Origin: an uncultured bacterium
GTDB lineage: Bacteria; Patescibacteriota; Minisyncoccia; UBA6257; 2-01-FULL-56-20
DNA length: 64,000 nt
Direction: 5' to 3'
Assembly (NCBI GenBank): GCA_963718515.1
Contig: OY970354.1
Location: forward strand, 110,363 to 174,362
The notes under the pieces are model-generated. The model saw only the letters and a program-made list of their open reading frames with translations. It ran no database searches and had not been told where the DNA came from. This document shows, piece after piece, positions 23,455-62,702 of the stretch. A program made the position numbers and the translations under genes. Each line of letters opens with the position of its first letter. The stretch's first letter is position 1.

Positions 23455-23908
23455 TCACTTCTTTCTTTTGCAAATCTTGTACGTTTCAAAAAAATTCGCA
23501 ATTTCTTTTAAGAGGTGTGGATTATACATCTCAACATCCTTGATATCTTTGATCGCGCTGAAGCGCGGGTCTTTTGTTTGCACCCCAAGGATCTTCGCGT
23601 CCGGCTCGCCGGAATCGATCATATTAAGCATGCCGATCGGGCGCACCTCCGCAACGCATCCCGTGAATAGCGGATCGCCCCCGAGCACGAGCACATCAAG
23701 ATGATCGCCATCCTCCGAGCGCGTTTCCGGAATAAATCCGTAATCGAGCGGATAGTGGTACGGATCCATAGAGCACGCGATCGAGCTTAAAGATGCCAAG
23801 CTTTTCGTCGAACTCATACTTGTTCTGACTGCCTTTCGGTATCTCAACGATAATGTTGATGACCTCCGGCGCATCCTTTCCGATCGGAATTTTTTCCCAA
23901 GGTGACAT
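23455..23908 (-). pseudogene. ppa: Inorganic pyrophosphatase, one frameshift as assembled
   Basis: N-terminal part in ORF 23696..23908 ([29 protein letters not shown]). The rest is in ORF 23455..23874 ([30 protein letters not shown]...FFETYK). The frames switch near 23770. Confidence 0.85.
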
Positions 23909-23926
23909 TATTTTATTATAGTGATT

Positions 23927-25207
23927 TTATACTGCAATGTCTTCTTTTTCATCGGCCTCTGGCGGTGGGATCTGGTCGGCATCGGAACCCGCGTCAACGA
24001 GCCCGGCGACGCCGCCCTCCACCTCTTCCTCCGGCCGCGTCTGCGAACGAACGTCGATCTTCCAACCCGTAAGCTTCGCCGCAAGCCGCACGTTCTGCCC
24101 GCCCTTGCCGATCGCAAGGCTCAGCTGGCTTTCCGGCACATAGGCGCGCGCTTCGCGTCGAGGCAAAATCTCCACGCGCTCCACCTTCGCCGGTGACAGA
24201 GCCTGCATGATGAACTTCTCCGGATCATCGGACCATTCCGCGATGTCGATCTTTTCATTTCCCAATTCGTTATTGACCGCCATCACGCGCGTGCCGCGCT
24301 GGCCGACGAGCGCACCGACCGGATCAACGCCATCCGCTTTTGATGCCGCCGCGATCTTCGTCCGATTCCCCGGCTCGCGCGCGATCGCTTTGATTTCGAT
24401 CGCATCCTCGACGAGTTCCGGAACTTCCATGCGGAAAAGTTCTGCCACAAATCGCGGATGTGAGCGCGAAAGGATGATGCCCGGAAGCCGCGTGTCTTCT
24501 TGCACCGCAACCACCAAGAATCGCAACCGCTCCCCTGCCCGATAGTGCTCACCAGGAATGGATTCATTGCCAAACATCACGCCGATCGTGCGTCCAAGAT
24601 CCACAAAAATATTTCCACGCTCAAACCGTTGGATGACGCCGCTCACGATCTGGCCTTCGCGTCCACGCCATTCGTTCAATATGGAATCGCGCTCCGACTC
24701 GCGAAGTTTCTGCAAAATAACTTGCTTCGCTGTTTGCGCCGCGATGCGTCCAAAATCTTCATGGGTCTCGAGTGGAAACATCATCTCTTCGCCAAGCTCG
24801 ACATCTTTCTTTATTTTTTTCGCTTCATCTAAAGTAATGTGACGCTCGGAGTTGAATCGCGGAAGTTTCTGTTCGTCATCTTCTCCCATCGGCTTCTCCA
24901 TTGCCGCCGGTGTCGCTCCAGCTGTTCCGCTTGCCGCCGCTGCAGCTGCTTCCGCATTCGCTGCCTCTTCTGCTTCGTCAACAAAACGTACCGTCGTTTC
25001 ATCCACTACGGTTTTGATCTGCCAGAAATTCAGCTCGCCGGTCTTTTGGTCCATCTTACACTTCACCATCTCGCCGCGCTCGCCGTATTCTTTTTTATAC
25101 GCCGCCGCAATCGAAGACTCTATCACATCCAAAACTTTCTCCGGATCTAATCCTTTTTCATCCGCAACTTGCTTGAGGGCTTTTGATAATTCTTTTATGT
25201 TGAGCAT
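23927..25207 (-). CDS. nusA: Transcription termination/antitermination factor NusA
   Basis: ORF 23927..25303 trimmed to [20 protein letters not shown] (ATG at 25207). Contains an N-terminal domain, an S1 domain ([21 protein letters not shown]) and two KH domains ([32 protein letters not shown]). Confidence 0.93.
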
Positions 25208-25299
25208 TTCTTTAAAAAAGACCACGCGGAAGCGGGTCTCTATCACTCCTCTATTGTATTTGAACCGTGCCCTCCATGTCAAGGGCAATTGGCAATCGC

Positions 25300-25674
25300 T
25301 CAAATGTTTTCGTAATGGCGAAGACTCGCCATTTTCCCATCCTGCAAGACGATCGCGATGAGATCGATCTGCCAGCCACCATCCTCTTTTATAAGCTCCG
25401 GGTGTTTGGCAAGAAAAACCATACTCCCGCGGGTGAGCTTCCGGAGTTTTGTTTGGCTAAGGTTATCTTCGGGCATAAATGGCGATATATAGCCCCCTCT
25501 ATTATTAAGGGTCTTTACCTCACAAAATATCAAAGCTCCTTTTGGATGCCTTGCAATGATATCTATCTCATCGAACCGCTCTCTATGGTTTTTAGTCAGT
25601 ATTAAGTATCCCTTTTGAAACAAAAATAATCCGGCAATTCGCTCTCCGGCTTTGCCGGTTTCTTTATTATTCAT
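25300..25674 (-). CDS. YraN-family (UPF0102) endonuclease-like protein
   Basis: ORF trimmed to MNNKETGKAGERIA (ATG at 25674). GYLILTKNHRERFDEIDIIARHPKGALIFCEVKT follows the YraN D...E-V-K nuclease-fold pattern. Confidence 0.8.
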   Translation of the reverse strand: MNNKETGKAGERIAGLFLFQKGYLILTKNHRERFDEIDIIARHPKGALIFCEVKTLNNRGGYISPFMPEDNLSQTKLRKLTRGSMVFLAKHPELIKEDGGWQIDLIAIVLQDGKMASLRHYENI

Positions 25675-25693
25675 AATTAAAAATATGGGTTGA

Positions 25694-25804
25694 ATTTTAA
25701 TTGTGTTTGTCGACAAACATCATTTTAATTCCAAAATGGCAAAAAATGGCATTTTTAATTTAAAATAGGGATAAAAACATTTTAATTGTGTTTGTCGACA
25801 AACA
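25694..25804. promoter_or_regulatory. Two copies of a 26-nt repeat, each containing a perfect 16-bp palindrome (operator-like)
   Basis: ATTTTAATTGTGTTTGTCGACAAACA occurs at 25694-25719 and 25779-25804. The palindrome is TGTTTGTCGACAAACA. Both lie in the divergent intergenic region between the yraN-family gene and dksA. Confidence 0.5.
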
Positions 25805-26072
25805 ATTTTGGGAAACAATTTTGTTTAACAGTAGGTTTTACGGGCTTATCGGGTTTTGCCGCATTATTTCTATTTAATCCGGCAATCCGGCAAAATTGCC
25901 GGATTGCTCATTTATTATTAATAAATAGTTAATAACCATTTAATAATTGCCCTTTTATTTTGCCGGATTAAAACTGCCTAATAGCCGAAATCCAAGGGGG
26001 AGGTAAAATTTTATTTATTAGAAATTCCTAAACATTGCTTTCGGAGGTATAAAACTTTATCCTTAGTGGATT

Positions 26073-26405: not shown

Positions 26406-26423
26406 AAACGCGCACCACTCCGT

Positions 26424-26455
26424 AAAACACCCAGCACCACTGGGTGTTTTATTAT
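26424..26455 (+). terminator. Rho-independent terminator
   Basis: AAAACACCCAG-CACCA-CTGGGTGTTTT followed by ATTAT. Confidence 0.7.
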
Positions 26456-26480
26456 CTTTTAATCATCGGCGTGCGATAGT

Positions 26481-28040
26481 ATGCTCATGAGTAAAAAACT
26501 GGGGCGATTATATTCCGCCGCGCTCGAGGGCATTGACGCGAAAATTATTGAAGTGGAAGCAGATGTGAACGTCGGACTCCACTCGTTCAATATCGTTGGG
26601 TTGGGGGACCGGTCATTGAGCGAAGCCAAAGAGCGCGTCAACTCCGCGCTTAAAAACTCCGGCATCAAGCCGCCGAACCGCGAGAACCGGAAAATCACGA
26701 TCAATCTCGCTCCTGCGGATATCAAGAAGACTGGGTCACACTATGACCTCGCGATTGCGATCGGATATCTTCTTGCGACGAAGCAAATAAAAGCGTTCGA
26801 TTGCAGTGATAAATTATTTCTTGGCGAACTCGCGCTTGATGGAAGGTTGCGGCCGGTGAGCGGTGCGCTGAACATTGCACAGCGGGCGGCGCAGGCGGGA
26901 TTTTTATATTTATTCCTGCCGCGACAGAATGCGAACGAGGCGGCGGCGATAGACGGGATAGCGATCATTCCATTGGAAGATCTACATGAAGCGATCGACG
27001 TGCTCGAAGGGAGAAAAGATTTGACACCGGCGAGCTTCGACAAAAGAAATTTCGAGCATCGATCGGCGGGGGACATCTCCGAGATCAAAGGCCAGGAGAA
27101 TACAAAGCGCGCGCTCACGATCGCGGCGGCGGGGCAGCATAACATTCTGCTCTTTGGTCCGCCCGGCGTTGGCAAGACGTTTCTCTCGCACGCACTTGCC
27201 GGCATTATGCCTGATCTTACGACGCCCGAGGCGATCGAGGTGACGAAGATCTGGAGCGCTGCCGGACTAAGCCCCGGATATCTCATACAAAATCGGCCCT
27301 TCCGGGCGCCGCACCATACGGCATCCATCGCCGCACTGATCGGCGGGGGACAAGACCCGAGACCCGGCGAGATCAGCCTCGCACATCGCGGTGTGCTATT
27401 TCTCGATGAACTTCCCGAATTCCAGAAAAATGCGCTTGAGGCATTGCGTCAACCTCTCGAATCCGGAGTCGTCTATGTTGCGCGGACAAAACAGAGCGTG
27501 ATGTTTCCGGCAAAATTCATCCTTGTTGCGGCAATGAACCCGTGCCCGTGCGGATATTACGGCGATACCGAAAAAGAATGTAAATGTTCTGCGTACGAGA
27601 TCATAAAATATCAGAAAAGGATCTCTGGTCCATTACTGGATCGCATCGACCTGCAAGTAAAAGTAGGACGCGTTGCTATCGAAGACCTCCGGAAAGGTGC
27701 GGATGATGAATTCCACGATTTGCAGGAAGCGAGCGGTGCACTGAAGATATCCATCGCCCGGGCACGGGCGGTGCAATACGCACGATTTGCCGCCACTGCG
27801 CACGCCGATTCCAATAAAACGAACGCCGAGATGACTTCGCGCGAGGCGGAGCGGATGACAAAGCTCGATCCAGCCGCCAACGCCTTCTTGGAAACACTGG
27901 GCAAAAGCCATCTCTCGCCGCGCGGATACTACCGCTTAATAAAAGTGGCCCGCACCATTGCGGACCTGGAAGAAACAGAATGCGTTTCCTCCGCACACCT
28001 CGCGGAGGCCTTCAGCTATCGATTGAAAGAGATATTTTAG
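26481..28040 (+). CDS. YifB/ComM-family Mg-chelatase-like ATPase
   Basis: 519 aa. Lon-like N-domain, Walker A LFGPPGVGKT, Walker B GVLFLDELPEF, and the zinc-ribbon insert CPCGYYGDTEKECKCS. Confidence 0.92.
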   Translation: MLMSKKLGRLYSAALEGIDAKIIEVEADVNVGLHSFNIVGLGDRSLSEAKERVNSALKNSGIKPPNRENRKITINLAPADIKKTGSHYDLAIAIGYLLATKQIKAFDCSDKLFLGELALDGRLRPVSGALNIAQRAAQAGFLYLFLPRQNANEAAAIDGIAIIPLEDLHEAIDVLEGRKDLTPASFDKRNFEHRSAGDISEIKGQENTKRALTIAAAGQHNILLFGPPGVGKTFLSHALAGIMPDLTTPEAIEVTKIWSAAGLSPGYLIQNRPFRAPHHTASIAALIGGGQDPRPGEISLAHRGVLFLDELPEFQKNALEALRQPLESGVVYVARTKQSVMFPAKFILVAAMNPCPCGYYGDTEKECKCSAYEIIKYQKRISGPLLDRIDLQVKVGRVAIEDLRKGADDEFHDLQEASGALKISIARARAVQYARFAATAHADSNKTNAEMTSREAERMTKLDPAANAFLETLGKSHLSPRGYYRLIKVARTIADLEETECVSSAHLAEAFSYRLKEIF

Positions 28041-28042
28041 CC

Positions 28043-28678
28043 CTACCCGGCAAAGACATTGATATCGTCTTCGCCCGGAATGACGATCGATATCCCCGGA
28101 ACAAGCGATGAAAAATTTACAGATGGGTTAAATTGAACTATCTTACTCATAGGAACCCCGAAGGCGGACGAGATCGACTGGAGGGTGTCTCCGGTGCTCA
28201 CTTGATAGATAATTCCGGACATAAGCACCTTTTGGCCGTTATTGGCCGAGGGCGGCGATGTCTTAAATTTAACGAACCCTCCAGGATCTTTAAGCGCTCC
28301 CTCTGCATAAAGAACATTGGTATCTTCCACTGGGTTCAAGCCGGTCGTGCCGTTATTAATAGACGCCAGGAATGGCGCGCTTTGCACGGCAAGGGCGGCA
28401 CTATCTACCTCGGCGCCCTCGGCCTGGGGGATCAAGCTAGATCCTTCGGAAACCCTCTTTTCTTGTATCCCGGCCGTCTTGCCGGAAACGAAAAAAGATC
28501 CGAGGAGTAGTCCTCCAACCACCAAAAAAACAGCCACGGTTAATGGCTTATATTCTTTATTAAACTTTAACGCGATAGTACTAATACCCTTAAGATTAGC
28601 ATAATGATCCCAAAATCTCAAACACCCTATAAAGCCGGACAGCACCCACTGAACCCCGCCCAAGATGCCGCAGCGCAT
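28043..28678 (-). CDS. LysM-domain membrane-anchored protein
   Basis: 211 aa. TM helix LTVAVFLVVGGLLLGSFFV and a C-terminal LysM domain, YQVSTGDTLQSISSAFGVPMSKIVQFNP. The annotated ATG overlaps the divergent helicase gene by 75 nt, so the true start is uncertain. Confidence 0.7.
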   Translation of the reverse strand: MRCGILGGVQWVLSGFIGCLRFWDHYANLKGISTIALKFNKEYKPLTVAVFLVVGGLLLGSFFVSGKTAGIQEKRVSEGSSLIPQAEGAEVDSAALAVQSAPFLASINNGTTGLNPVEDTNVLYAEGALKDPGGFVKFKTSPPSANNGQKVLMSGIIYQVSTGDTLQSISSAFGVPMSKIVQFNPSVNFSSLVPGISIVIPGEDDINVFAG

Positions 28679-30543
28679 GCCCCCGGAACCCCTCTATTAA
28701 TAGTGGCGGGGGCTGGAACGGGCAAAACCAAGACATTAACGAGTCGAATCATCCATTTAATGGAGACCGGAACCCCTCCGGAGCGCATTTGTGCTATCAC
28801 TTTTACCAATAAAGCAGCAAAAGAGATGGCAAAACGGGTGCGAGAGGGCTATCCACTGCCAAAAAGCTCGGAAAAATCACCATTTTTGGGGACTTTTCAC
28901 TCGCTTGGGGCAAAAATACTGAGAAAAGAGTGCCGTTTAGTAGGCCGAGACCCCAATTTTGCCATTTTTGATGACCACGACTCTTTTGATCTGGTTAAAA
29001 AAGCCGTCAAAGCCGTCCTGCCCCCCAAAAAGAGCGATGAGGATGAGGGCCTCCTTGCCAAGAAAAATAAAAAAGACACGCCGGTGTATTTTGCCAAGAA
29101 GATCTCCGAGCTGAAGAATCTGGGGAAGTTGTTGCCTGAGGCACGGCCGAATGTGGAAAAAGAAGCGCAGGCGCGCCGGGTATTTGAAAAATATGAAGCC
29201 GCGCTCGAGCGCAACAATGCGTTCGACTTTGACGACCTGATCGAAAAAGTGGTGACGATATTCAAAACCCATCCCGAGGTGCTAAAAAAATATCAGCGGA
29301 TGTTCGACGCGATCCTTGTTGATGAGTATCAGGACATCAATCCAAAACAATACGAACTCGTTTCATTGCTTGCCGGCGAGCATCGCAACTTGAGCGTGGT
29401 GGGGGATGATGAGCAAACTATTTATAGTTGGCGCTACGCGGATATAAAAACATTTTTGAATTTTGATAAAGAATGGAAAGGTGCGAGCGTACATTTTTTG
29501 GAAGAAAATTATCGTTCGACGGGAACGATCATCCGCGCGGCGGCGGCCGTTGCAAAAAACAACCGTTTCCGCACGCCAAAAAATTTATGGACGCAGAATC
29601 CGGACGGTGAGCGCATCACGCTCTTCGAAGCATGGGGCGAGAACGAGGAAGCTGAATGGATCGCAACGCAGATCCAATCACTGCGCGATAAAGATAAAAA
29701 TGCCGACATCGGAATCTTATACCGCACGAACGCACAGTCGCGTGCCGATTGAACAGTCGCTCATCCGCAACAATATTCCGTATCGCATCTTTGGCGGCCT
29801 TAAATTTTACGAACGACGCGAAATAAAAGATGCAGTTTCGGCGTTGCGCTATATCTCGAATCCCAAAGATGAACCGGCGCGCGAGCGTTTGGAAAAAAAT
29901 CTTACGAAGCGGAGATTTGCGGAATTTCGAGATGGAGGTGCAGAGATTGCAGATCCTGAATGAAGCTGGAAAGATTGCACCACTCGCCGCGCTCAAATTA
30001 TTTTTGGAGACGTTTGGCTACTTTGAATATCTCGAGACAAATTTTATAAACTCTGACGAGCGCGAAGAGAACATTGCAGAGCTCATCACCTTCGCGACCG
30101 ATTTTGCGAGTCTCGATGAACTGCTCGAACGGTTAAGCTTACTGCAGGCCGCGGACGAGATAGGCGCAAAACCCGTTGATGGACGCGAGGTGAATCTCAT
30201 GACCATCCACTTGGCGAAAGGGCTCGAGTTTGATTCGGTATTCATTGCCGGCGTTGCCGAAGGACTTCTGCCGCACGGCCGCTCACTCGACGATGAGGCA
30301 TCTCTTGAGGAAGAGCGGCGCCTGATGTACGTCGCCATGACACGCGCGCGAAAAAAATTATATCTTAGCTTCTATGGCATTCCATCGCGATTCATAAGCG
30401 AGATCCCGGAAGATTTCATCACGCTCGAGACGAGCGGGGACGCCGCGGCAGGCGATGATCACGATGCGGTGTTAAAAAGTGATAAGTGGTATCGTGACGA
30501 TAGCGACGGTAGCGATGAAGAGAATTTTGTCTCGCTTGATTAA
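28604..30543 (+). pseudogene. UvrD/PcrA-type superfamily-1 DNA helicase, about 2 frameshifts as assembled
   Basis: Motifs I (VAGAGTGKT), II (ILVDEYQD) and III (VVGDDEQTIYSWR) are in ORF 28604..29752. The middle part (IEQSLIRNNIPYRIFGGLKFYERREIKD) is in ORF 29463..29963. Motifs V/VI (LMTIHLAKGLEFDSVFI, RRLMYVAMTRARKKL) are in ORF 29830..30543. Confidence 0.88.
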
Positions 30544-30560
30544 AACCAGTAATTATTTCC

Positions 30561-33599: not shown

Positions 33600-33611
33600 C
33601 ACGCGATCTTC

Positions 33612-38353: not shown

Positions 38354-38356
38354 GAA

Positions 38357-40827
38357 TTGTGGGAAAATAACAGTATGGCACTACCTTCAAAGCAGGATCT
38401 GGGAAATTCCCTTGATCTTGTCGATATTAAAGAGATAAAACAGAACACCGTGATCGTTAAGGATGGCAGCCTTCGCCAGGTCATCATGGTGGGTGGCGTT
38501 AATTTTTCATTAAAATCGGAGACAGAGCAGAATATTATACCCAGGGGTACCAGACATTTTTAAATAGCATCGATTTCCCCTTGCAGATATTGATCCATTC
38601 ACGCAAGGTGAACATCGAAAAATATATTGAGACGCTCACGGCCCGAAAGGAAGTGGAGCAATCGCCGATCTTGCAAAACCAAATCGAGGAATACGGAAAA
38701 TTTATAGAGGGGTTCGTGCAAAAGAACGCGATCATGGAAAAAGTGTTTCTCGTGGTCGTCTCGTTCTATGCGGCGTCGGTGCTCCCGAGCGCCAAGAGCG
38801 TTTCATCGATGATCCCGTTCCTGGGGAAAAAGAAACCGGATGCGGCGGCCGTGGCCCAGCGGGCAGGCGAGGAAGAAAAGATATTCGGCGAGAGCCTCGC
38901 CCAGCTTACCCAACGAACCGCGCAGATCACGAGCGGCCTCTTAAACATCGGCCTTGAGGCGACGGTGCTTGACGACGAACAGCTCATCGAGCTCTTTTAT
39001 AACTTCTACAACCCACAGACGATCGAACGTCAAAAAGTGCCAGGGCCACGGCAATAATATCCGCACTATCATCACCCATGCCAGCGAACCAGCAAAAAAT
39101 AATTTTGGCAGCCCAGAGGACGTGAAGAAGATCATCGCACCCGCGGGCGCGCGAGGTGTTTCCTAATTATTTAAAGATCGGCGACAAGCTCGCAAAAACA
39201 TTCTTTGTTTTTTCCTATCCGCGCTATCTTTCGACCGGCTGGTTCGAGCCGCTCATCAACCTGCCCAATCTTTTTGATATTTCGATTTTCATAAACCCGA
39301 TCGACACCGGCAGCGCGCTCAAAAATCTCCGCAAAAAAGCCGGCCAGCTTGAATCGCAAATGAACGAAGAGCAGGAAAAGGGCTTAGTGCGAAACCCCGT
39401 GCTCGAAACGGCCATCAACGACGTGGAGGGTCTGCGCGATTCGCTCCAGCAGTCCGAAGAAAAACTTTTCGACACCGGCGTTTACATCACGATCTATGCC
39501 GACACCACGGAAGAGCTCGCGCGGCTCGAGAGCAAGCTCGTCACCATGATGGAAGCGAAGCTCATCTATATAAAGCCCGCGCTTTTTGAACAGCTCGAGG
39601 GACTTTCTTCCATACTTGCCCATCAACGAGGACAAATTGCAGATCTACACGCCGATGAACACGAGTCCGATCTCGTCGTTCTTCCCGTTTGTTTCGGAAG
39701 ATCTTTCTTCCAACGAGGGCATTATGTACGGCATCAATCTGCACAACAGCAATCTCGTGATCTTCGACCGCTTCTCGCTTGAGAACGCGAACGAGGTGGT
39801 CTTCGCAAAGTCCGGTTCGGGAAAATCGTATACCACAAAGCTCGAGATCATCCGCTCGCTCATGGCCGGCATCGACATGGTGATCGTGATCGACCCGGAA
39901 AATGAATATGAACGGCTCGCCAAGACATTCGGCGGAAGCATGTTCAATATTTCACTGTCGTCGCACGAACACATCAATCCGTTCGACATCCCGCTCATCC
40001 CCGAAGGCGAAACGCCGTCGGATGTTTTGCGTTCCCATATCGTGACGCTCGCGAGCTTGCTCAAACTTATGGTTGGCAAGCTCACGCCGGAGGAGGACTG
40101 CGATCCTCGACCGCGCGATCACCGAAACCTACGCCTCGCGCGAGATCGTGGCGGATACTGACTTTACCGGCAAAGAGCCGCCGGTGCTTGAGGATCTTGG
40201 AAACCGTTCTGCGCAATCTGGAAGGCGGGCACGACCTTGCGGAAAAGCTCTATAAATATACCAAAGGAAGTTTTGCCGGATTTTTGAATCAGCCGACAAA
40301 CATTGATGTCGAAAATCGCCTTATTGTTTTCTCCATCCGCGACCTGGAAGAAGAATTGCGCCCGATCGGCATGTTCGTCGTGCTGAACTTTATCTGGAAC
40401 CTTATCCGCGCAAAGCTCGCCAAGCGCCTGCTCTTCATTGACGAAGCGTGGATCATGATGAAGAACGAGGACAGCGCGACATTCTTGTTCGGTCTCGTAA
40501 AGCGCGCGCGCAAATATTATCTGGGCGTTACGACGATCACGCAGGACGTGGAAGATTTTTTGCGCTCGCCGTACGGCCGCCCGATCATCACAAACTCTTC
40601 ATTGCAGTTGCTGTTAAAACAGGCGCCCGCCACGATCGATATCGTTGCAAAAGCGTTCGACCTGACCGATGCGGAAAAGAACTTTCTTGCTCGGCGCAGA
40701 AGTCGGCACCGGCATCTTCTTTGCCGGCAAGCGCCACGTGGCCATCCAGATCGTGCCGTCGTACTACGAAGACCAGATCATCACGACAAATCCCGAACAG
40801 CTGCTGGAGGAAAAAAGTGCGCTGTAA
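38357..40827 (+). pseudogene. VirB4/TrbE-like T4SS ATPase, at least 7 frameshifts as assembled
   Basis: Fragments across ORFs 38357..38563, 38581..39057, 38954..39166, 39156..39782, 39586..40161, 40073..40255 and 40188..40850. Walker A VVFAKSGSGKSYTTK, Walker B LLFIDEAWIMM. The true C-terminus, GAEVGTGIFFAGKRHVAIQIVPSYYEDQIITTNPEQLLEEKSAL, ends at TAA 40825-40827. Confidence 0.85.
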
Positions 40828-45529: not shown

Positions 45530-45542
45530 TGGTTTTTATTAT

Positions 45543-45872
45543 TTATATTTTTGCCGTTGCTATTGTGAGCTCTTCCTGAAATCTTTTTTTTGTGAGGCCG
45601 TTCACCCCGGCAGAGAGGATCATAAGAATGTCCATTCCTTTTCCGCCGCCGTGCTCGCGATTTGCGAGAGATAGAAGCGCCGCCTTCGCCTGACGTTTCC
45701 AAAAATTCCTTTTTGCGGCGCTTTTATGGACGGATTTTCCGGCAACCACTCCGATCCGCACCCTACCGATAGTGTTCATTTTGATTTTCAAAGAAAATAA
45801 TGGATTTCTGATCGTCCTATACCCACGGGCGTGGAACTCATCCCGAGGAAGGCGCGCTACTTTGGGAATCAT
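45543..45872 (-). CDS. rnpA: Ribonuclease P protein component
   Basis: 109 aa. Basic RNR-like stretch KSAAKRNFWKRQAKAA. Lies in the conserved position between rpmH and yidC. Confidence 0.85.
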   Translation of the reverse strand: MIPKVARLPRDEFHARGYRTIRNPLFSLKIKMNTIGRVRIGVVAGKSVHKSAAKRNFWKRQAKAALLSLANREHGGGKGMDILMILSAGVNGLTKKRFQEELTIATAKI

Positions 45873-45910
45873 ATACCTAAAAGATGGTGATGGGGTGCCA
45901 AAAACGACGG

Positions 45911-46045
45911 CTAAACGGTCAATTTCCGCCTGCCTTTTGCCCTTCTTCGGGAAAGAACGCGCCTGCCCGTCGGAGTGGCCTGGCGCTTAAGGAACCCATG
46001 GGTATTCCTCCGCTTCTTTTTCTTTGGATTGTACGTAAACGACAT
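45911..46045 (-). CDS. rpmH: 50S ribosomal protein L34
   Basis: Below the ORF-track cutoff. Hand translation: [44 protein letters not shown] (44 aa), the L34 signature. Confidence 0.9.
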
Positions 46046-46224
46046 TCCCTAGATGGTATCACACTGTTTTTAAAAAGCAAAGCTTCTTTTTTGATCCAGC
46101 GACACCTAAAAAAAGCTGTGCACACGTAATCCCCAGAAAAAGAACTTTTGTTATTTATATGGCTCTTTGACTTGTGGAACGGAAGAGATAATAATGAATC
46201 AACGAACTTAATTATTTTTTAACT

Positions 46225-47583
46225 ATGGACCTTGAGCAAATGTGGCAGTCGACGTTAGGCGAGATGGAGGTTCAATTAACGAAGGCGCATTTTCGACGTG
46301 GTTAAAAAATAGCCGATTGATCGAAAAAAAGGATGATACGTTGTTCGTGGCCCTCCCGAGCAACTTTGCGAAGACGTGGGTGGAAGAAAAATATCAGAAA
46401 AATATCATTGGCATCGTCCGAAATATGGATAACTCGGTCAAGAAGATCGAATTTGTGGTAGGAAACAAGAATTTCCCGACCGCGAAGACGGCTCCCGAAG
46501 TCCAAGAGGCGCAAAAGCCGAACGAGGGCACGCTTGATTTCAATAAGACCGACCCGGAAACGGGTCTGAACCCAAAATATACCCTCGCTTCATTCGTCGT
46601 CGGTCCCTCGAACGAGCTCGCATTCGCCGCGGCGAATGCGATCACCGAAGAGCATCGGAAAAAAATATAATCCGTTCTTTATTTATGGCGGCGTCGGCCT
46701 CGGAAAGACGCATCTTATCCAAGCGATCGGCAACGAGATCATCGCAAAATATAAAGGCAAGGTGAAGCCGAAGTATGTTGCTTCGGAACAGTTCACGCGC
46801 GACATCGTATGGGGTCTCCGCAACGACCGCATCGAGAGCGTGAAGAAGAAATATCGCGACGTTGATGTTCTTATCATCGACGATATTCAATTCATCGGCG
46901 GAAAAGAAAAAACGGAAGAAGAATTTTTCCATACCTTCAACGCGCTCTACGAAAACAATAAACAGATCATTATTTCCTCCGACCGGCCGCCACAATCACT
47001 CCCCACGCTCGAGGAACGCCTCCGCTCGCGCTTTGAGGGCGGCCTCATCGCCGACGTGAGCCTATCCCGGAATATGAGATGCGCGTGGCGATCATCAGGA
47101 GCAAGCTCCAGGATATGAACCGGCAGCTGAGCGATCCCGTAGTGGACCTCATTGCCAAGAAGCTGAGGAAGAATATCCGTGAGTTGGAGGGGGTACTTAA
47201 AAAGATCATCTTCTATGAGGAGCGGAAGCAGACCGAGATCAACGTAAAGATGGCCGAGGAGATCATTGAAAAAGCCACGCAAAACCTCTCAAAGCGGGTC
47301 AATGACGTCGCAGATCCTTAAGGCAGTGGCGGAATTCTTTAATATCACCGTCGAAGACCTCGTGAGCCACAACCGCCGCAAAGAAGTGGTGGAACCGCGC
47401 CAGATCGCCATCTATCTTCTTCGGGATATCTCCGAGCTTTCCTATCCGTATATTGGTGAAAAGCTGGGGAGAGATCACACCACCGCCATCCATTCCTACG
47501 AAAAGATCAACCATGAGATCAACAGAAATCCAGCACTTAACCAGAAGATATTAATGATTAAGGATGTGATTTATAAGAGTTAA
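46225..47583 (+). pseudogene. dnaA: Chromosomal replication initiator DnaA, at least 4 frameshifts as assembled
   Basis: Starts MDLEQMWQSTLGEMEVQLTKAHF at ATG 46225, then continues through ORFs 46242..46670, 46636..47118 ([17 protein letters not shown], Walker B LIIDDIQF), 47079..47321 and 47266..47583 (domain IV: RRKEVVEPRQIAIYLLRD...GRDHTTAIHSYEKI). Confidence 0.9.
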
Positions 47584-47719
47584 TCCCGTCGCTATCCCCA
47601 GATGAAATTACAATGAAGGCTTGTATATATTGAATAAATAAAAAGTTATCCCCTAAAAATCACATTCCTAATAGTAATCTTAGTAGTAAGTATTTAATAT
47701 AAAACTATAATTAAGAGAG
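47584..47719. promoter_or_regulatory. Candidate oriC segment (dnaA-dnaN spacer with DnaA-box-like 9-mers and an AT-rich stretch)
   Basis: CTATCCCCA (47592-47600) and TTATCCCCT (47646-47654) each differ from TTATCCACA at 2 of 9 positions. The flanking sequence is more than 75% AT (TGTATATATTGAATAAATAAAAAG...). A third box, TAATCCCCA, lies at 46127-46135 between rpmH and dnaA. Confidence 0.4.
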
Positions 47720-48836
47720 ATGAAATTTATCGCGATACGATCAAATATTAAAGATGCTATTTCCGTGATTGAGAAAGCGGTCGGGGAAAATAGCAATCTT
47801 CCGATATTAAAAAATATCCTCATTGAGGCGGAAGATAATACTATTACATTCAGCGCCACCAATCTCGAGATCGCGATAAGCCATAAGGTTGCGGGGAAGA
47901 TCATTGAGAACGGAAAAATAACCGCCCCACTCTCACTTTTTTCGAGCCTCATCAACAATATCCAGAGCGACCGGCTGAATTTTGAGAAAAAAGGGAATAA
48001 CCTCGAGATCGCGACGGATAATTACAGCGCAGTTATAAATGGATTGCCAGCGGAGGATTTTCCCATTACCCCAAAGATAAAAAATGCCGAAGGGTATCAT
48101 AGAGATAAAAAGCGCATTTCTTCGGGAAGCGATCCAGCAGGTTACCGTGGCGTCGCAATATTCTGACCTGCGACCGGAGTTGAATAGCGTCCTTTTCAAT
48201 TTTTCCCTCGAGAGTCTTGTGCTTGCCTCTACGGACGGCTTCCGGTTGGCGGAAAAAGCGATTTCCGCAAGTCTTTTCACCACAAAAAATAAAGAAGCCA
48301 TTCAGAATCCTCGTTCCGCTCCGCACAAGCCTCGAGATCGCCCGGATCATAAAAGACGATGAGGTGGTGCGGATATACCAGGACGAAAACCAGATATTAT
48401 TTAAAACAGACCAGACGGAGATGATATCGCGCCTCATCGAGGGAAGCTTTCCCGGACTATTCCGCCATCGTACCGCACGAATTTGCGGCAGAAATTGTGG
48501 TGGAGCGGGATGAGTTCACGAATGCCATAAAACTTGCCGGCGTCTTTGGCCAGAAAAATAGCGAAGTTAAGCATTAAGATTCACGAGAATAAAAAGGCGA
48601 TCGAGATAAGTTCCGCCGACCAGGCGCTCGGCGAAAATAACAATATCCTTCCTGCAAAGATAAAAGGCGAGATCCCCGAAATATTTTTTAATTGGCGCTA
48701 TCTTTCCGATCCAATGAAGAGCATCAAAACCGCGGATGTGTTCATTGGGCTTCAAGAAGACGCAGGCCCTGCACTCATCCGCTCAACGAGCGACAGTTCG
48801 TATTATTACGTCCTGAAGCCGATCTTAAAATCCTAG
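47720..48836 (+). pseudogene. dnaN: DNA polymerase III beta sliding clamp, at least 4 frameshifts as assembled
   Basis: MKFIAIRSNIKDAISVIEKAV...LPILKNILIEA, then continued in ORFs 48084..48362, 48217..48513 and 48534..48836 plus one unlisted frame (DYSAIVPHEFAAEIVVERDEF). Confidence 0.88.
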
Positions 48837-48851: not shown

Positions 48852-51031
48852 CTAATTTGTGGCGCTGGTAGAAGTGGTTGCCGGAGTGCTCGTCGTCACC
48901 GTCGTTTCCGGAACATCCAGGCTCGTGTAGCCGTTCGCCGTCGCCCATCGATCGACGCCGGTTTCCCAATTATGATATTGCGGATCCTCTGAAGGATCCG
49001 TGGGATCCGGCCCGTTCGGATCATTTTTATTTACATAGTAGAGAATGTCGTGCACCTGTCCATCAATGACGTATTGGCCGTTCATCACCGGTTTTGTGGA
49101 TGTGGTCGGCTCCGGTTGGATGAATGTGGTGTTTGGTACCTCCGGGAGTGCCTGCGTCATGAACGCATTCCACATCGGGACTGCGGCCAAAATACTCGAA
49201 CCGGCTTTTTGCATCGGCGCGTCGTCGTTATTGCCCGCCCAAACGCCCACAACGAGCGACGGCGTGTAGCCCATCGCCCACGCATCAACGTAGCTATTTG
49301 ATGTTCCCGTCTTCAGCGCCACATCGTAGCCGGGGAACACGGTGAGGTCCTTGGCTTCCACCCATGAGCGGCGCTCGTGCCGCCGCGTCGGATAAGATGT
49401 CGTTCACGAGTTCCACCGACTGCGCATCTGCCACTTGCGTCGATTGATCCTGGTATGACTCGAGCGTATTGCCATTCGCATCTTGTACGGACAAGATCAT
49501 CGTCTGCGCATTCTTTACACCGTTGTTTGCGAGCACAGAATACGCTTCAGTGAGGTCGATAAGATGCACCGCGCCGCCGCCGAGCACGAGCGACAAGCCG
49601 TAGCTTGCGGGATCGGTCAGCGTGGTGAGGCCAAAGTTATACGCGTTGTTGATCGCGTTCGTTTCGCCCACGAGATAGAGCATCTTCACGGCGGGCACGT
49701 TCACCGATTGCGCAAGCGCGTCGCGGATGGTGAGCGGGCCGGCAAAGGTGCCTTCAAAATCCTGCGGGTGGAAACATTTTGTGTTCGTCGAGTTGAAATC
49801 GGGGATCGCCGGGCACGAAGGATCCGTGCTGAACTCGGTGGGCACATCGAATAGTATTGTGTCGGGCGTGTAGCCCATCTGGAACGCGGTCAGATAGACA
49901 AAGGGCTTGAGCGATGATCCCGGCTGGCGCAGACCCTGGGTGGCCACGTCAAAATTTCCGTCGTTCGCGGCGTCGAAGTAATTTGCGGAGCCAACGAGGG
50001 CAAGTATTTGCCCCGTCGCGGGGTCTTCGGCCACAAGCGCGGCGTTCGTCGCCTGATAGAGCTGTGTGTTCCGCACGACGCCCTGCGCAACGGCCGTCTC
50101 GGCTTGTTGTTGCATCGTCCAGTTGAGCGTCGTGATCACTTTGAGGCCGCCGTTATCAACCTCATTCTCGCCATATTTCTGGACGAGATAGTTTTCTACG
50201 GCCATCACGAAGTGCGGCGCCTTTATGCCATCTTCCGATTGCGGTTGGAAGACGATCTTAAAGTTCTGCGCATCCGTTAGCTGGTCTTTTGTGATCTTGC
50301 CGGTGTTATACATCTGCTGGAGCACTAATTGTTGGCGCGCAAGCAGTTCGCTCACGTGCGTGCCCCACGGCGAATAGTATGTGGGCGCCTGGGGAAGCGC
50401 GGCGAGCACGGCGCTCTGCGCAATGTTAAGGTTCTGCACCGGTACGCCGAAATAATCTTCTGCTGCTTCGCCAACGCCCGAGATGTTCGGGCCGTAGGGA
50501 ACTTCGTTCAGATAGAGCGCAAGGATCTGCGACTTGGAATAATATTCATTCAGCTTGACTGCAAGGATGAACTCGCGGATTTTGCGAGAGAGTGTCTGGT
50601 TGAGGGTAAGGAACGCGGTTCGCGCGAGTTGTTGGGTGAGCGTTGAGCCGCCCTCTGCGAATGAATGCGTAGTGATGTCCACAAAGAGCGCGCGGATGAT
50701 GCCTTTTATGTCGAACGCCGGTTCATTATAAAAATTTTGGTCCTCGATCGCGATCGTGGCATCTTGCACGCTTTGAGGGATTTCGGTCGAGCGGCACGAT
50801 GGTGCGGCGTTGGCCGTTATTGATGTCATACAAAAGCACGGTGCCGGTCCGGTCATATATTTTTGTGGATTGGCTGATCTGCTGGCTCCCGATCTCCTGG
50901 ATCGATGGCACGGTTCTTGCGAGATAGAGGACCACCAAACATAACACTATCGCGAGGGACGCTATCACGATCCCCGCAATCTGAAAAATTTTGATATAAC
51001 GTTTTTTACTTCGTTTTATGGGATCCTTCAT
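48852..51031 (-). pseudogene. Class A penicillin-binding protein (glycosyltransferase GT51 + transpeptidase), 2 frameshifts as assembled
   Basis: The N-terminal TM anchor plus STKIYDRTG lie in 50726..51031. IAIEDQNFYNE..., RKIREF and the SxxK region GSSLKPF lie in 49294..50856. KTGTSN lies in 48852..49361. Confidence 0.88.
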
Positions 51032-54732: not shown

Positions 54733-54806
54733 AAGGAGCTTGCCATCACGTCTTATATATTGAGCACTGGGATATGTTAGCATATAGTTTATTTATTGTC
54801 AAGGCC

Positions 54807-55816
54807 ATGCCAAAACCCTCCTCAAATCCCCAAAAAGAAGACCTCAATATCGACCTTACCCTCCGGCCAACCGAGTGGGATGAATATATTGGCCAGGAAA
54901 AAATAAAAGATAATTTAAAAACCATTTTAGGCGCCGCAAAGAAGCGCGGCGAGTCGGCGGACCATCTTTTATTCTCCGGCCCCGCCGGTCTCGGCAAAAC
55001 GACGCTCGCATATTTGGTCGCGCGCGAACTGGGCGGACTCATCAAGACGACATCCGGCCCGGCGTTGGAAAAAGCGGGCGACTTGGCGGCGGTGCTGACC
55101 AATCTTACGCCCGGCGAAATATTATTCATCGACGAAGCGCATCGCGATCAACCCGATGATCGAAGAGGTGTTATATCCGGCGATGGAGGCGCGCAAGTTG
55201 CACTTGGTGGTGGGCAAAGGGCCGTCGGCGCGGACGCTCTCGCTTGATCTGCCGCCGTTCACGTTGATCGCCGCGACGACGCGCGAGAATTTACTGTCGC
55301 AGCCGTTGCGCTCGCGTTTCGGTGCGACGCTCCGCCTCGGCTATTACACGCCGGATGATATTAAAAAAATATTAGCGCGCTCGGCGAAGATTTTAGGGCA
55401 TTGAAGCCGCAGCCCGGCGCCGATGGATATCCTTGCGCGTGCGTCGCGCGGAACGCCGCGCGTGGCGAATCGGTTGCTGCGCCGCGCCCGTGACTTTGCG
55501 GAAGTGCACGGCGACGAACGTGATCGACGAGGATGCCGCGCGCCGAAGACGCTCGCAATGCTCGAGATCGATGAGGTCGGCCTTGAGCCGCAGGATCGCC
55601 AGCTTCTTGATGACGATCATCGAAAAGTTCCACGGCGGCCCCGTCGGCATCAACACCATCGCCGCCGCGCTCGCGGAAGACCGCGGCGTGATCGAAGACA
55701 TCTACGAGCCGTATTTGATGACGCTTGGATTCCTTCAGCGCTCATCCGCCGGCCGCATTGTTCTGCCAGCGGCATATCGGCATTTAAAGATAAAGGGGCA
55801 CGAGGAGTTGTTGTAG
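54807..55816 (+). pseudogene. ruvB: Holliday junction branch-migration ATPase RuvB, at least 5 frameshifts as assembled
   Basis: [19 protein letters not shown], Walker [10 protein letters not shown] and Walker B LFIDEAHR are in 54774..55247. [20 protein letters not shown] is in 55156..55404. [21 protein letters not shown] and EKFHGGPVG...[18 protein letters not shown] alternate between ORFs 55423..55830 and 55433..55816. Confidence 0.9.
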
Positions 55817-55859
55817 GGGCGCAGCTATAACGGCGGCGCAGGATTTTTTAGGCGGGTGG

Positions 55860-56504: not shown

Positions 56505-56574
56505 GCCCTCTTATAATCCTTATATTATTAATTATTTTATCATATTTTAATTATGATGTCTTATTATTGGAGGT

Positions 56575-57150
56575 ATGCTTTATATCAACGAGTGGCTTCC
56601 GAACCCCGTTGGCAATGACGCCGCCGGAGAATTTATCGAGCTTTATAATAGCGGCAATGCGTCCACGCCGCTCGACGGCTACGCGCTAAGCGACGGCGCG
56701 AAGAAAAGATTTTCCCTCGCCGGCTATGCCATCTCGCCGCAAGGCTATTTGATTTTGAAACACGCGCAAACCAAACTGACTTTGAAAAACACGGACGGGG
56801 CATTATTGTTATACGGTCCGGACGGACAGGTCGTGGACCAGGCGAATTTTGCCGGTATGGCGCCGGAAGGGAAAAGTTTTTCGCGCGTCAATTATAGCAC
56901 GGCGGCGATCGGACATTTTGCTTTTGAGTATCCGACGCCGGGCGCGGCAAACAAGACGATCGATACATCCGTGGCCACGCAAACGTATCCGCTGGACGTT
57001 TCGCTCTCGCCGCATCTTGCGCCCGCGGGGTTCGTGGCGCTCATGTTCGGCGTATCGACGTCATTTCTGCTATTCTTTGTGTATGTCACGCGCAATAACC
57101 GAAACATATCGCACTTCCTCTTCGGAGGAGACGAAAAAACTGGGGTATGA
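56575..57150 (+). CDS. Lamin-tail-domain (LTD) protein with C-terminal TM anchor
   Basis: 191 aa. [24 protein letters not shown]...LDGYALSD matches the LTD consensus. C-terminal hydrophobic helix [19 protein letters not shown]. Confidence 0.75.
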
Positions 57151-57564
57151 CCTCGGCCGGTCGCTCGCCCGCGGCACGGCAAAAAGCATCCGCGCCGCCG
57201 GCCCGATCGTGCTTGCGCTTCAGGGTGATCTTGGCGCGGGGAAGACCACGTTTGTGCAAGGATTTTTAAAAGGGCTTGGTTCGAAGAAGCGTGTCGCGAG
57301 TCCGACGTTCGTGCTCATGCGGCGGCATGCGCTTGCGCGGCGCGAAAAAAGTTTTTGAATGTCTACCATATCGACGCCTATCGTTTAAAAAAACCGGAGC
57401 ACCTGGCGATATTAAAATTTGATGAAATCTTGGCCGAACCTCGCAATGTGGTATTAATAGAGTGGCCGGAACAGGCGAAGGGTCTGATTCCCAAAAAAGC
57501 GTTGTGGCTAAAATTCACTTACGGCAAAAAAGAGAACGAACGGACGATCACGATAAAACGATAA
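57083..57564 (+). pseudogene. tsaE: tRNA t6A37 biosynthesis ATPase TsaE, 1 frameshift as assembled
   Basis: MSRAITETY...[18 protein letters not shown]...SPTF is in ORF 56849..57358 (from the ATG at 57083). VYHIDAYRL...VLIEWPE is in ORF 57355..57564. Confidence 0.8.
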
Positions 57565-57574
57565 GAATCGAACG

Positions 57575-58546: not shown

Positions 58547-58585
58547 CCTTTTAATACTGGGCTTAGGCGGTGTATAATAAACCCA

Positions 58586-59920: not shown

Positions 59921-60005
59921 GTTCGCACCCGCAGCTTGACCTTTTTGTAATTTAATGTTTTACTGAACGCGGTTCACCCCATCTCAATATTTGGAGGTTT
60001 CCAGT

Positions 60006-60788
60006 ATGGAAACGAAGAAAATTGCCCTTGCTTGTTCTATCGGTGCTATGTTGTTTTGCGCGGTAGCTCTGGTGGTTGCTCCGCATTACACCTGGCTGGC
60101 TCTCTTTGCGGGAATTGCTGGAGGATATTTCAGCTACGAATTCCGCGAGGTCTGCAAAGGGGTTCCCGTTGCGTTGGGCTCTGCGGCGGGAGAATTTGCG
60201 GATGGCATTTCTGAAATAATGCAGGAGGTCGGAACCTATCTGCACAAGCCACACCCATTTGCGTTCCCGCCGCTGATCTGCGAAGGTTTCGTCCTGGCAT
60301 GGGTGAGCGTGCGTTGCTACCACAAATTCGGTCTGGGCAGAGAGTTTTTTGGGATTCTCTTCCCGTCGGCTATCCTTTTTGCGGTCCTCGCGACAGTGCT
60401 GGGATGTATGCTCGGCATCGTTGCCCTCTTCGGTGCGATAAGGGAAAGGTGTTCGTGGTGGAAGGACGACGACCCCGAGAGGCCATTTGCGCAGAAGGGG
60501 AATAGATTGCGTTACGTGCCGCTTTCTTATTCCAATGCCTTCCGCTGGATATTCCTCGGCCTTTTCGTCGACCTGCCGGAAACCATGGGGATCTTTTGCT
60601 GGCGTTCTGTCCGCTACTTCTTCCGACTCATCCATTCCAACAAGCGGTTGCTTTGTGCGACCGACGGGACGCTGGGTGGCATCGTGAGTTATTACTGGCT
60701 CGCGACGTCTTCGGGGTTTTTAATTGGGAGATCGTTTCCAAGCGAATCCTCCACATCAAGACTGCGTGATGGTCGGCCGGTACAGTAA
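60006..60788 (+). CDS. Integral membrane hypothetical protein
   Basis: ORF 59991..60788 trimmed to the ATG at 60006, which is preceded by GGAGG. Contains several TM helices. No family recognised. Confidence 0.55.
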   Translation: METKKIALACSIGAMLFCAVALVVAPHYTWLALFAGIAGGYFSYEFREVCKGVPVALGSAAGEFADGISEIMQEVGTYLHKPHPFAFPPLICEGFVLAWVSVRCYHKFGLGREFFGILFPSAILFAVLATVLGCMLGIVALFGAIRERCSWWKDDDPERPFAQKGNRLRYVPLSYSNAFRWIFLGLFVDLPETMGIFCWRSVRYFFRLIHSNKRLLCATDGTLGGIVSYYWLATSSGFLIGRSFPSESSTSRLRDGRPVQ

Positions 60789-60856
60789 CGGGGTTGTTCT
60801 TATCCTTTTTAGGACGAGAGCAGCCCCGTTTTTTATTCTCTATCTAAGTAACATTA

Positions 60857-60990
60857 TTTGGCCAGGGGAAGGGGATTGCTTGCTGTTTTCAGGGTATGCC
60901 GGAGGCGCGAAGGCGCCGAGGCGTAGCGCTTTTTGAGCAGAAAAAGACGCGACCCTGAAAACAGCAAGCAATCCCCTTCCCCTGGCCAAA
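60857..60990 (+). ncRNA. Candidate structured RNA / repeat element, copy 3 of 3 (38-bp perfect outer hairpin; core reads on the plus strand)
   Basis: Arms 60857-60894 and 60953-60990 are perfect complements. Core: GCC-GGA-GGCGC-GAAG-GCGCC-GA-GGC (60898-60922) and GCG-CUUUUU-GAGCAG-AAAAAG-A-CGC-GA (60926-60952). Ends 25 nt before the pyrG start. Confidence 0.4.
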
Positions 60991-61015
60991 GGTTTCCCGT
61001 ATACTGATATGCGAA

Positions 61016-62702
61016 ATGGCACCGTCGAACTCCAAGGGTCACCACAAATATATTTTCATTGTTGGAGGAGTAATGTCGGGAGTCGGCAAGGGTGTCGCAT
61101 CGTCATCCATCGGAAAAATAATCCAGTCGCGCGGATTGGAAGTGACCTCCATCAAGATCGATCCCTACATTAACGTCGACGCAGGGACAATGAACCCCAC
61201 CGAACACGGTGAGGTTTTTGTTTTGGATGATGGCACGGAATGCGACCAGGATATGGGCAACTATGAACGCTTTTTGGACCGCGATCTTTCCGGCGCGAAC
61301 TATATGACGACGGGAAGCATCTATAAAACGGTCATCGAGCGCGAGCGGAGTATGGGATATGGCGGAAAATCGGTGAGTCCGGTGCCGCACATCCCGCTCG
61401 AGATCCTCGATCGCATCGATAAGGCCGCGGCGCTCGCAAAAGCGGACGTCGTGATCACCGAAGATCGGCGGTACCGTGGGCGAGTACGAGAACATTTTAT
61501 TTTTGGAAGCGATCCGTATGGCGAAGTTCAAACACCCGAAAGATGTTTTGGTGATCTTGGTGAGCCACTTGCCGATCATGAGCGACGACAATGAACTGAA
61601 GACGAAGCCGACCCAGCACGCGGTGCGCGCGCTGAACGCGACGGGTCTCCAGCCGGACATCATTTTGGCGCGCGCGAAATATCCGCTCGACGAAAAGCGC
61701 AAAGAGAAGATCGCGTTCAACTGCAATCTGCGCGAGGAGGATATTATTTCCGCGCCGGATGTTTCGAGCTTGTACGACATCCCGGTCAATTTTGAAAAAG
61801 ACGAGCTCGGCAATTTGATATTGGAAAAACTTTCCATGCGTCCTCGCAAAAAAGGATATGAAGGAGTGGCGTGCGTTCGCGGAAAAGATCCATAACAGCA
61901 AAAGAAGTCGTGCGCATCGGCATCGTGGGAAAATATTTCTCAAGCGGCAAATTTATTCTGGCGGATTCGTATCTTTCGGTGATCGAATCCATAAAACACA
62001 GCGCCGCGTTCTGGGGCGTAAAGCCGGAGATCAAGTGGCTCGATTCGGGCCAGTTCGAGGATGTAAAGAACGGCGGGCGGGGTGCGGAAGGCCTCAAAGA
62101 ACTCGACAATTATGACGGCATTATCGTTCCCGGCGGCTTTGGCGCGCGTGGCGTAGAGGGTAAATTGAATGCCATCCGGTATTGCCGCGAGAACAAGATC
62201 CCGTATTTTGGGCTTTGCTACGGCATGCAACTGGCCACCGTCGAATTTGCCCGGAACGTGTTGCATATGAAGGGCGCGAACACCACGGAGGTGGATCCCA
62301 AAACAAAATATCCCGATGATCGATATTTTGCCGGAGCAGAAGAAGTTGATGGCGGAAAAGAAATATGGCGCGACCATGCGGCTTGGCGCATACCCGGCGG
62401 TGTTAAAGAAAGGGACGATTGCCGACAAAGCCTATGGCAAATCAGAGATCTCCGAGCGGCACCGGCATCGCTATGAAGTGAATCCTGCGTACGTGGAACG
62501 GCTCGAAAAAGGCGGTATCGTTTTTTCCGGACAGTCGCCGTCGCGGCGCCTGATGGAAGTGATGGAGCTCCCGCGCACGGTTCATCCATTTTTTCTTGGC
62601 ACGCAGTTCCATCCGGAATTGAAGTCGCGCCCCTTGCGCCCGCATCCGCTGTTCAAAGAATTCATGAAGGCCGCGAAGGTGCGCCATGAAGCCGCCGCAT
62701 GA
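61016..62702 (+). pseudogene. pyrG: CTP synthase, at least 3 frameshifts as assembled
   Basis: [16 protein letters not shown]...[16 protein letters not shown] is in 61016..61594, [13 protein letters not shown] in 61476..61895, [12 protein letters not shown]...GLCYGMQ (the glutaminase Cys) in 61871..62476, and HRHRYEVN...FLGTQFHPE in 62316..62702. Confidence 0.92.

Follow-up and report, generated by a model that had tools for sequence, protein, structure and literature searches.

The frame breaks that interrupt ten genes in the window, the whole 64,000-nucleotide stretch of uncultured bacterial DNA analysed here, are with a probability of about 0.9 errors of the assembled consensus, that is, an artefact in general and not part of the organism's DNA. 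The breaks show no unusual biology and, being almost certainly errors of a long-read consensus, they leave the ten genes to be treated as intact. As for the specific mechanism, it is probable that reads of related populations were recruited onto conserved segments; mixed reads are favoured over plain poor polishing as the cause, but this is not proven.

Census of the frame breaks

Break positions were set by frameshift-aware alignment to intact orthologues from related loci. The initial annotation had counted about 30 breaks in about 12.7 kb and had proposed a comparison with orthologues to locate them; that comparison, run against the syntenic Paceibacterota relatives, places each break and gives a total of 29-31 in about 12.9 kb, distributed over ppa, a uvrD-like gene, a 234-aa gene, a virB4-like gene, dnaA, dnaN, the PBP1A gene, ruvB, tsaE and pyrG. 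The fragmentation of the named genes consists of true frame changes, not of in-frame stops, and the coordinates of the Pfam profiles run on across the frames. About 26 of the approximately 31 affected bases are inserted, as single extra bases, and 4-5 are missing.

The inorganic pyrophosphatase gene ppa (23375..23926, minus strand; PF00719) carries two breaks, one more than had been claimed: one base is missing near 23475 and one is extra at 23761 (TCC[G]TAC, extra base in brackets), at 82-84% amino acid identity to the orthologues of L096 and L098. The uvrD-like helicase gene (28595..30540, plus strand), whose Pfam UvrD-helicase and UvrD_C domains are spread over two ORFs, also has two: one base is extra at 29747 (GCC[G]ATT), and a second shift, of the +1 type, falls near 29958, where the length of the sequence varies (83-87% identity to L117, L098 and L109). 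At least seven breaks had been assigned to the virB4-like ATPase gene (38945..40824, plus strand; Pfam DUF87/TraG P-loop). The alignment gives five, all of them single extra bases (39152, 39615, 40099, 40196 and 40683) on whose sites six orthologues agree (86-93% amino acid identity), plus one in a separate gene of 234 aa immediately upstream (38354..39054, plus strand), where seven orthologues place the same event, a wobble base missing at 38537 (ATT AT- ACC).

The replication gene dnaA (46198..47580, plus strand) presents four to five breaks, with DnaA_N, Bac_DnaA and Bac_DnaA_C over four ORFs: a missing base at 46294, extra bases at 46653-46656 (CAT[C]) and 47307-47310 (GTC[G]), and, at 47062-47066, two extra bases for which AGC[C]TAT[C] is the best reading (81-90% identity to nine orthologues). 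In dnaN (47717..48833, plus strand), the three beta-clamp domains (Pfam, domains 1-3) also extend over four ORFs, and eight orthologues locate four breaks, single extra bases at 48098, 48297, 48445-48448 and 48572. The PBP1A gene (48921..51028, minus strand), which encodes a 714-aa transglycosylase and transpeptidase (PF00912, PF00905), has one extra base at 49350 and another at 50785 relative to nine orthologues (72-86%).

Four to five breaks fall in ruvB (54780..55813, plus strand), where RuvB_N is split at profile position 96 and RuvB_C lies in a third frame; extra bases are found at 55146, 55510-55516 and 55606 and two at 55544, at 89-93% identity to the orthologues of L121-L123, L003 and L008. 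The tsaE gene (57083..57561, plus strand) has one break within a GC-rich run at 57335-57341, which in comparison with L121-L123 represents two extra bases or one missing base and leaves profile positions 2-64 and 67-127 of TsaE in two frames. Finally, the CTP synthase gene pyrG (61016..62699, plus strand) has its Pfam domains across four ORFs (CTP_synth_N 1-139 then 140-265; GATase 2-101 then 99-189) and four single extra bases, at 61463, 61848, 61894-61897 and 62312. It is 90-92% identical to L121-L123, and 120 homologues, the best of them 89% identical, are intact.

Condition of the repaired genes and of their neighbours

Once the extra bases are removed, the ten genes contain no in-frame stops in the orthologue alignments. 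Window-specific changes at positions that are invariant among the relatives amount to 0.2% in virB4, 0.4% in dnaA and 0.6% in uvrD, compared with 1.0% in ftsH, 1.0% in nusA and 3.0% in pilB, which are intact. For those broken genes that have six or more orthologues the values are 0.2-2% except for ruvB (3.3%), and the range for unique changes at invariant residues in the intact genes is 0.7-4.5%; the 6.9% of ppa comes from three orthologues only. The absence of stops, together with the lack of an excess of unusual residues, indicates that the genes are not decaying, and judging from their sequences they are under normal purifying selection. These results agree with the earlier advice to treat the genes as intact, and the organism very probably has intact and functional dnaA, dnaN, ruvB, pyrG and other genes that appear broken here.

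The neighbouring genes behave as had been described. Interleaved genes totalling about 23 kb are unbroken in comparison with their orthologues, among them nusA, comM (26481-28037), the genes for the 726- and 586-aa proteins, pilB, a histidine kinase gene, a 5'-3' exonuclease gene and others; with a uniform break rate, the probability of zero breaks in them would be about e^-19. The control region (1..23374) contains folD, a HhH-GPD glycosylase gene, glyA, a hybrid kinase gene, ftsH and genes for 400-aa and 205-aa proteins. It was said to be free of breaks, and no frame break is detectable in it: every set of Pfam domains lies complete within one frame, and a single frame holds the full length of folD, of glyA, of the hybrid kinase gene, of ftsH, of the 400-aa gene and of the 205-aa gene, the last three of which align with their orthologues at 81-94% with zero events.

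The breaks follow local conservation. No event was found in the 85 bins of 200 nt with less than 75% local nucleotide identity to the relatives, and 29 events fall in the 131 bins with 75% or more (Mann-Whitney p = 4e-7). Conservation alone is ruled out as a sufficient cause by ftsH, nusA, glyA, pilB and the 205-aa gene, which are break-free though equally conserved (80-83% nucleotide and 83-94% amino acid identity). From these alignments, conservation is necessary but not sufficient for the breaks.

Origin of the breaks

Internal frameshifts were compared across 80 related loci, 6 from Nanopore-only Microflora Danica (MFD) genomes and 74 others. Only three loci show two or more, L006 (13), L051 (4) and L002 (2), and all three belong to fragmentary Nanopore-only MFD MAGs, with breaks that are mostly insertions; this corresponds to three of the six MFD loci and to none of the 74 others (hypergeometric chance about 2e-4). 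They are broken at other sites and in other genes than the window, for instance nine times in the pilB of L006. The insertions of the window were found in no relative, and at the break positions every orthologue used is one uninterrupted ORF. The MFD Nanopore MAGs were assembled with metaFlye followed by one Medaka round (PMC12313526), and in soil assemblies frameshift errors have been reported to be higher for Nanopore than for HiFi (PMC13087279). The window belongs to a metagenome-assembled genome of a candidate-phyla-radiation bacterium in the Paceibacterota (Patescibacteria); by comparison with these relatives, this genome was very probably also built from long noisy reads. The window resembles the errors known from Nanopore-only metagenome assemblies (metaFlye and Medaka MAGs, IDEEL-type protein-length tests) in that single-base indels truncate the predicted proteins, and in that such errors are present in the L006, L051 and L002 fragments of the same clade and absent from short-read MAGs.

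Generic consensus noise of long reads, due to low coverage or unpolished patches and with related populations uninvolved, is nevertheless an unlikely cause. The affected relatives are fragmentary bins and the closed or near-closed MFD Nanopore genomes L007, L012 and L031 have zero events, which points to coverage or quality, and the tests for a second allele described below are marginal (p = 0.012 and p = 0.045). However, random noise would not spare the 17 kb where conservation is lower and cluster at 75% identity or more. Classical Nanopore errors, moreover, are linked to homopolymers and low coverage and are prone to deletion, whereas those of the window are non-homopolymer insertions in its most conserved genes. 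The site statistics (homopolymer, second allele and P-site codon) are based on 22 single-base insertions. A long homopolymer, a run of seven A, surrounds only one of them, that at 61848, in line with the earlier remark that several breaks are not at homopolymers; the homopolymer-only class comprises 2 of the 22, against 32% in random simulation. Real mutations, in a degenerating genome or in a population with dnaA, dnaN, ruvB, pyrG and others as pseudogenes, are very improbable. The breaks do stand in the given sequence, and Patescibacteria are host-dependent organisms with reduced genomes, but about thirty frameshifts without nonsense codons or excess missense changes at invariant sites do not fit this reading. 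Neither does the strong bias towards insertion (about 26 inserted against 4-5 deleted bases), since bacterial gene decay is usually deletion-biased. In addition, the genes are essential, the 120 pyrG homologues are intact without exception, as is every other orthologue, and in a gene with several breaks nothing would lead selection to keep the rest pristine.

Recoding is extremely improbable; in this reading each site would be brought back into frame by programmed +1 ribosomal frameshifting, by transcriptional slippage or by RNA editing. The same +1 correction serves most events, and conservation of the proteins after repair is perfect; in this respect the window is similar to the programmed +1 frameshifting of prfB, or to that pervasive in Euplotes, where a one-base forward shift also restores the frame. 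In a programmed +1 site, a stop or hungry codon comes after a slippery P-site codon. The sites of the window, on the contrary, lack both a shift motif and a stop or rare codon, and they are not conserved in orthologues: 15 different (P-site) codons precede the 22 sites, re-pairing in the +1 frame is impossible in most of them, the next stop in the old frame is 1-104 codons downstream and an A-run is present at one site only. Insertions at these sites are absent from all relatives, and in the affected Nanopore relatives the breaks lie elsewhere. Recoding is therefore unsupported, because the insertions have no shared shift motif and occur in no relative. That the extra bases are truly genomic, with dnaA, dnaN, ruvB, pyrG, virB4 and others expressed by pervasive, motif-independent +1 recoding at the ribosomal or transcript level, is barely credible; if it were true, the Nanopore relatives would show the same biology at other sites.

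Other candidates were also discarded. UGA reassignment occurs in some candidate phyla, but an alternative genetic code does not apply to the window, where every interruption is a frame change and the alignments contain no in-frame stops. Rescue by transcriptional slippage, as in the poly-A tracts of endosymbionts, was rejected with 1 of the 22 sites in a long A/T run. Errors at the GATC methylation motif were rejected as well: many of the breaks seemed to lie near a GATC, but over the whole window the motif is 2.2-fold over-represented (551 observed, 249 expected), and relative to positions drawn at random from these genes there is no clear enrichment in proximity (p = 0.22, 0.12 and 0.04 at 2, 5 and 9 nt). 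A G inserted after a C, as in a CpG-type context, accounts for 5 of the 22 sites against 10.5% in the null (p = 0.07).

The initial annotation had suggested a consensus artefact, with either collapsed reads of related strains or species or a local lack of polishing in long-read sequence as its source. Such an artefact is the best explanation, based on purifying selection, confinement to segments of at least 75% identity, the parallels in Nanopore-only MAGs and the absence of a frameshifting motif. Regarding its mechanism, the extra base and its neighbour give two synonymous codon variants in 17 of the 22 single insertions (for example GAC[T], TAT[C], GAA[G] and TCC[G]), compared with 51% in simulated random insertions (p = 0.012). 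The extra base is the base of the relatives at the adjoining position in 16 of 22 (53% expected, p = 0.045), and 12 of the 17 second-allele insertions correspond to transitions (49% expected, p = 0.06). This resemblance to a second allele at the wobble position is suggestive only. Soil and peat communities contain many related populations. Segments highly similar to related populations of the same sample would recruit the reads of these relatives during assembly or polishing, and at the differences between populations, mostly at third codon positions, the consensus caller could sometimes emit both alleles in tandem, so that one base would be added and the frame shifted. Less conserved neighbouring genes would recruit no foreign reads and would stay clean. 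Consensus errors from collapsed haplotypes or strains, in which both alleles are emitted, are like those of the window in the wobble-adjacent extra base with its two synonymous readings, in the frequent match of that base with the relatives, and in the restriction of the events to segments similar enough for recruitment of foreign reads. They are unlike them in that some equally conserved genes of the window are unaffected, and support for the likeness is modest (p = 0.012 and p = 0.045).

Consequences for annotation

This mode of error selectively strikes the most conserved genes, which are those used as phylogenetic markers and in completeness estimates. At least one public genome that represents a species of the clade, that of L006, shows the same damage, with its 13 internal frameshifts in the syntenic block. 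The ten genes should be annotated as intact pending re-polishing; otherwise, annotation pipelines would label them as pseudogenes or fragments, and a lineage with reduced genomes could appear, falsely, to have lost functions in replication and repair.

Placement of the breaks

In metagenome-assembled genomes of Paceibacterota/Parcubacteria (Patescibacteria), 80 loci syntenic with the window were found with a dnaA fragment; the best match it at about 75% DNA identity across 37.8-58.1 kb. For 16-35 kb, a nusA query added 40 further loci, from metagenomes of peat and soil, and 52-64 kb was covered by three loci obtained via pyrG homologues. Intact orthologues were aligned to the window with a purpose-written protein-to-DNA aligner that allows frameshifts, and gene identities and the continuity of profile coordinates between frames were checked with Pfam.

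The interruptions are true frame changes, with Pfam profile coordinates running on from frame to frame. A total of 29-31 events within about 12.9 kb was found by this frameshift-aware alignment: in ppa (23475, 23761), the uvrD-like gene (29747, ~29958), the 234-aa gene upstream of virB4 (38537), the virB4-like gene (39152, 39615, 40099, 40196, 40683), dnaA (46294, ~46654, 47062-47066 with two bases, ~47308), dnaN (48098, 48297, ~48446, 48572), PBP1A on the minus strand (49350, 50785), ruvB (55146, ~55513, 55544 with two bases, 55606), tsaE (~57338) and pyrG (61463, 61848, ~61895, 62312). The initial annotation had reported about 30 breaks in conserved genes; this observation stands, with the counts for ppa and virB4 slightly corrected. 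The orthologue comparison it proposed for locating each indel gave concordant sites, to a few bases.

In the region 56557-57561, the tsaE frame also shares tens of bases with the end of the lamin-tail-domain gene that precedes it. The same overlap is present in intact relatives (6593-7583 in locus L122, 18883-19906 in locus L008), so it is natural and not a break.

Regarding other features, G+C is about 52% in the window and lowest (0.45) in the intergenic region upstream of dnaA (45540-46197) and the dnaA-dnaN region (46000-48000), likely the vicinity of the replication origin. The related locus L121 carries two IS200/IS605-type Y1 transposase gene copies (4457-4885 and 8539-8967) inside its ruvB-pyrG block; they are missing from the window, which instead has an unassigned stretch with long ORFs on both strands (59955-60785). 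A 125-aa ORF at 3485-3859 (minus strand) weakly matches the toxin-like PBECR2 nuclease domain (26.9 bits; curated cut-off 27.1).

Distribution along the window

Conservation was scored in 200-nt bins over 16.1-63.7 kb as the best local identity to any relative. Twenty-nine events lie in the 131 bins with at least 75% identity and none in the 85 bins below that value (Mann-Whitney p=4e-7). Detection bias does not account for this, as each less conserved gene is one full-length ORF and matches its orthologues from end to end. Conservation alone is insufficient to explain the breaks; ftsH, nusA, glyA, pilB and the 205-aa gene are equally conserved and carry none.

The interleaved genes were confirmed as unbroken, with no events in about 23 kb aligned to orthologues (nusA, comM, the 726-aa, 586-aa and 450-aa genes, pilB, the histidine kinase, the exonuclease, S20 and others), an outcome with a probability of about e^-19 under a uniform break rate. 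The first 23 kb, likewise described as free of breaks, proved clean: glyA, folD, the hybrid kinase, ftsH, the 400-aa gene and the 205-aa gene are each complete in one frame.

Possible causes: decay, recoding, assembly error

Single extra bases make up 22 events and pairs of extra bases 2 or 3 more, and bases are missing in only 4 or 5. Of the 22 single insertions, 17 are of G or C, and only one insertion falls in a long homopolymer, in agreement with the earlier remark that breaks lie off homopolymers. Once the extra bases are removed, the genes contain no in-frame stops and their proteins are 84-92% identical to the orthologues. Changes at sites invariant in all relatives are not commoner in the broken genes (virB4 0.2%, dnaA 0.4%, uvrD 0.6%, dnaN 1.5%, PBP1A 2.0%) than in intact ones (ftsH 1.0%, nusA 1.0%, comM 1.2%, pilB 3.0%). 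Some 30 frameshifts in dnaA, dnaN, pyrG and similar genes, where selection is not otherwise seen to be relaxed, cannot stem from ordinary gene decay. Nor is there support for poly-A slippage, programmed frameshifting or a variant genetic code, since the 22 insertion sites follow 15 different codons, re-pairing in the +1 frame is impossible at most of them, the next old-frame stop lies from 1 to 104 codons downstream, and the orthologue alignments showed no insertions at these positions in relatives.

Sequencing technology was examined by aligning nine proteins of L003, a short-read relative, to all 80 genome loci, leaving out events near protein ends. No internal events were found in 68/80 loci, and nine divergent loci had one each, probably alignment noise. 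Only three had at least two: L006 (13), L051 (4) and L002 (2), all fragmentary bins from the Nanopore-only Microflora Danica catalogue, a product of metaFlye assembly with a single round of Medaka polishing (PMC12313526). No events were seen in three closed or near-closed genomes from this project. L006 (CAWHOC010000012.1, MFD04780.bin.2.65) is a public species-representative Nanopore MAG with its 13 frameshifts in the syntenic block (2226-18282); 10/13 are single insertions, and nine lie in pilB (15705-17268), a gene intact in the window. In L123, another Nanopore assembly (ENA ERZ25039454 contig_5695), the histidine kinase gene lying upstream of pyrG is called as two fragments of 121 and 103 aa (8966-9958); the window, L121 and L122 have a single 443-444-aa gene there, so an assembly error of this kind probably split it. 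An independent benchmark on soil data found frameshift errors commoner with Nanopore than with HiFi (PMC13087279). Like damage at differing sites, in assemblies of one technology, is predicted by an artefact and not by biology. The breaks are very probably an assembly or consensus artefact (probability about 0.9), and the original interpretation is supported by the lack of signs of decay or recoding, the confinement to conserved segments and the parallels in Nanopore bins.

Origin of the extra bases

At most insertions, the extra base (in brackets) and its neighbour form two alternative synonymous codons, such as GAC[T], GAT[C], AAC[T], CAT[C], TAT[C], GAA[G], CAA[G], TCC[G], GCC[G], CGC[G] and CTT[C]. 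Others combine two first-position variants seen in relatives ([C]GAG vs CAG, [G]ATC vs GTC/GTG, [C]TTG vs CTG). Such two-allele cases amount to 17/22, versus 51% for random single-base insertions simulated through the same pipeline (p=0.012), and in 16/22 the inserted base is one that a relative has at the neighbouring position, versus 53% expected (p=0.045). The pattern is suggestive, not decisive: it fits a consensus caller that, given mixed reads from two related populations, would emit both alleles; the presumed mixing would be limited to segments whose similarity lets them recruit foreign reads. Low coverage or plain poor polishing is a serious rival, but it leaves the confinement to conserved segments unexplained. 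In a long-read metagenome assembly, reads of related populations recruited to conserved segments seem, on balance, the most likely source.

As for local context, GATC occurs 551 times in the window (about 249 expected from base composition), a 2.2-fold excess even along its length; proximity to GATC was not clearly enriched after allowing for this high genome-wide frequency. Insertion of G after C was not significant.

Until the sites have been verified in the reads, annotation should treat the ten genes as intact. Conserved marker genes are precisely what this error mode strikes, and public representative genomes of the clade show it too.
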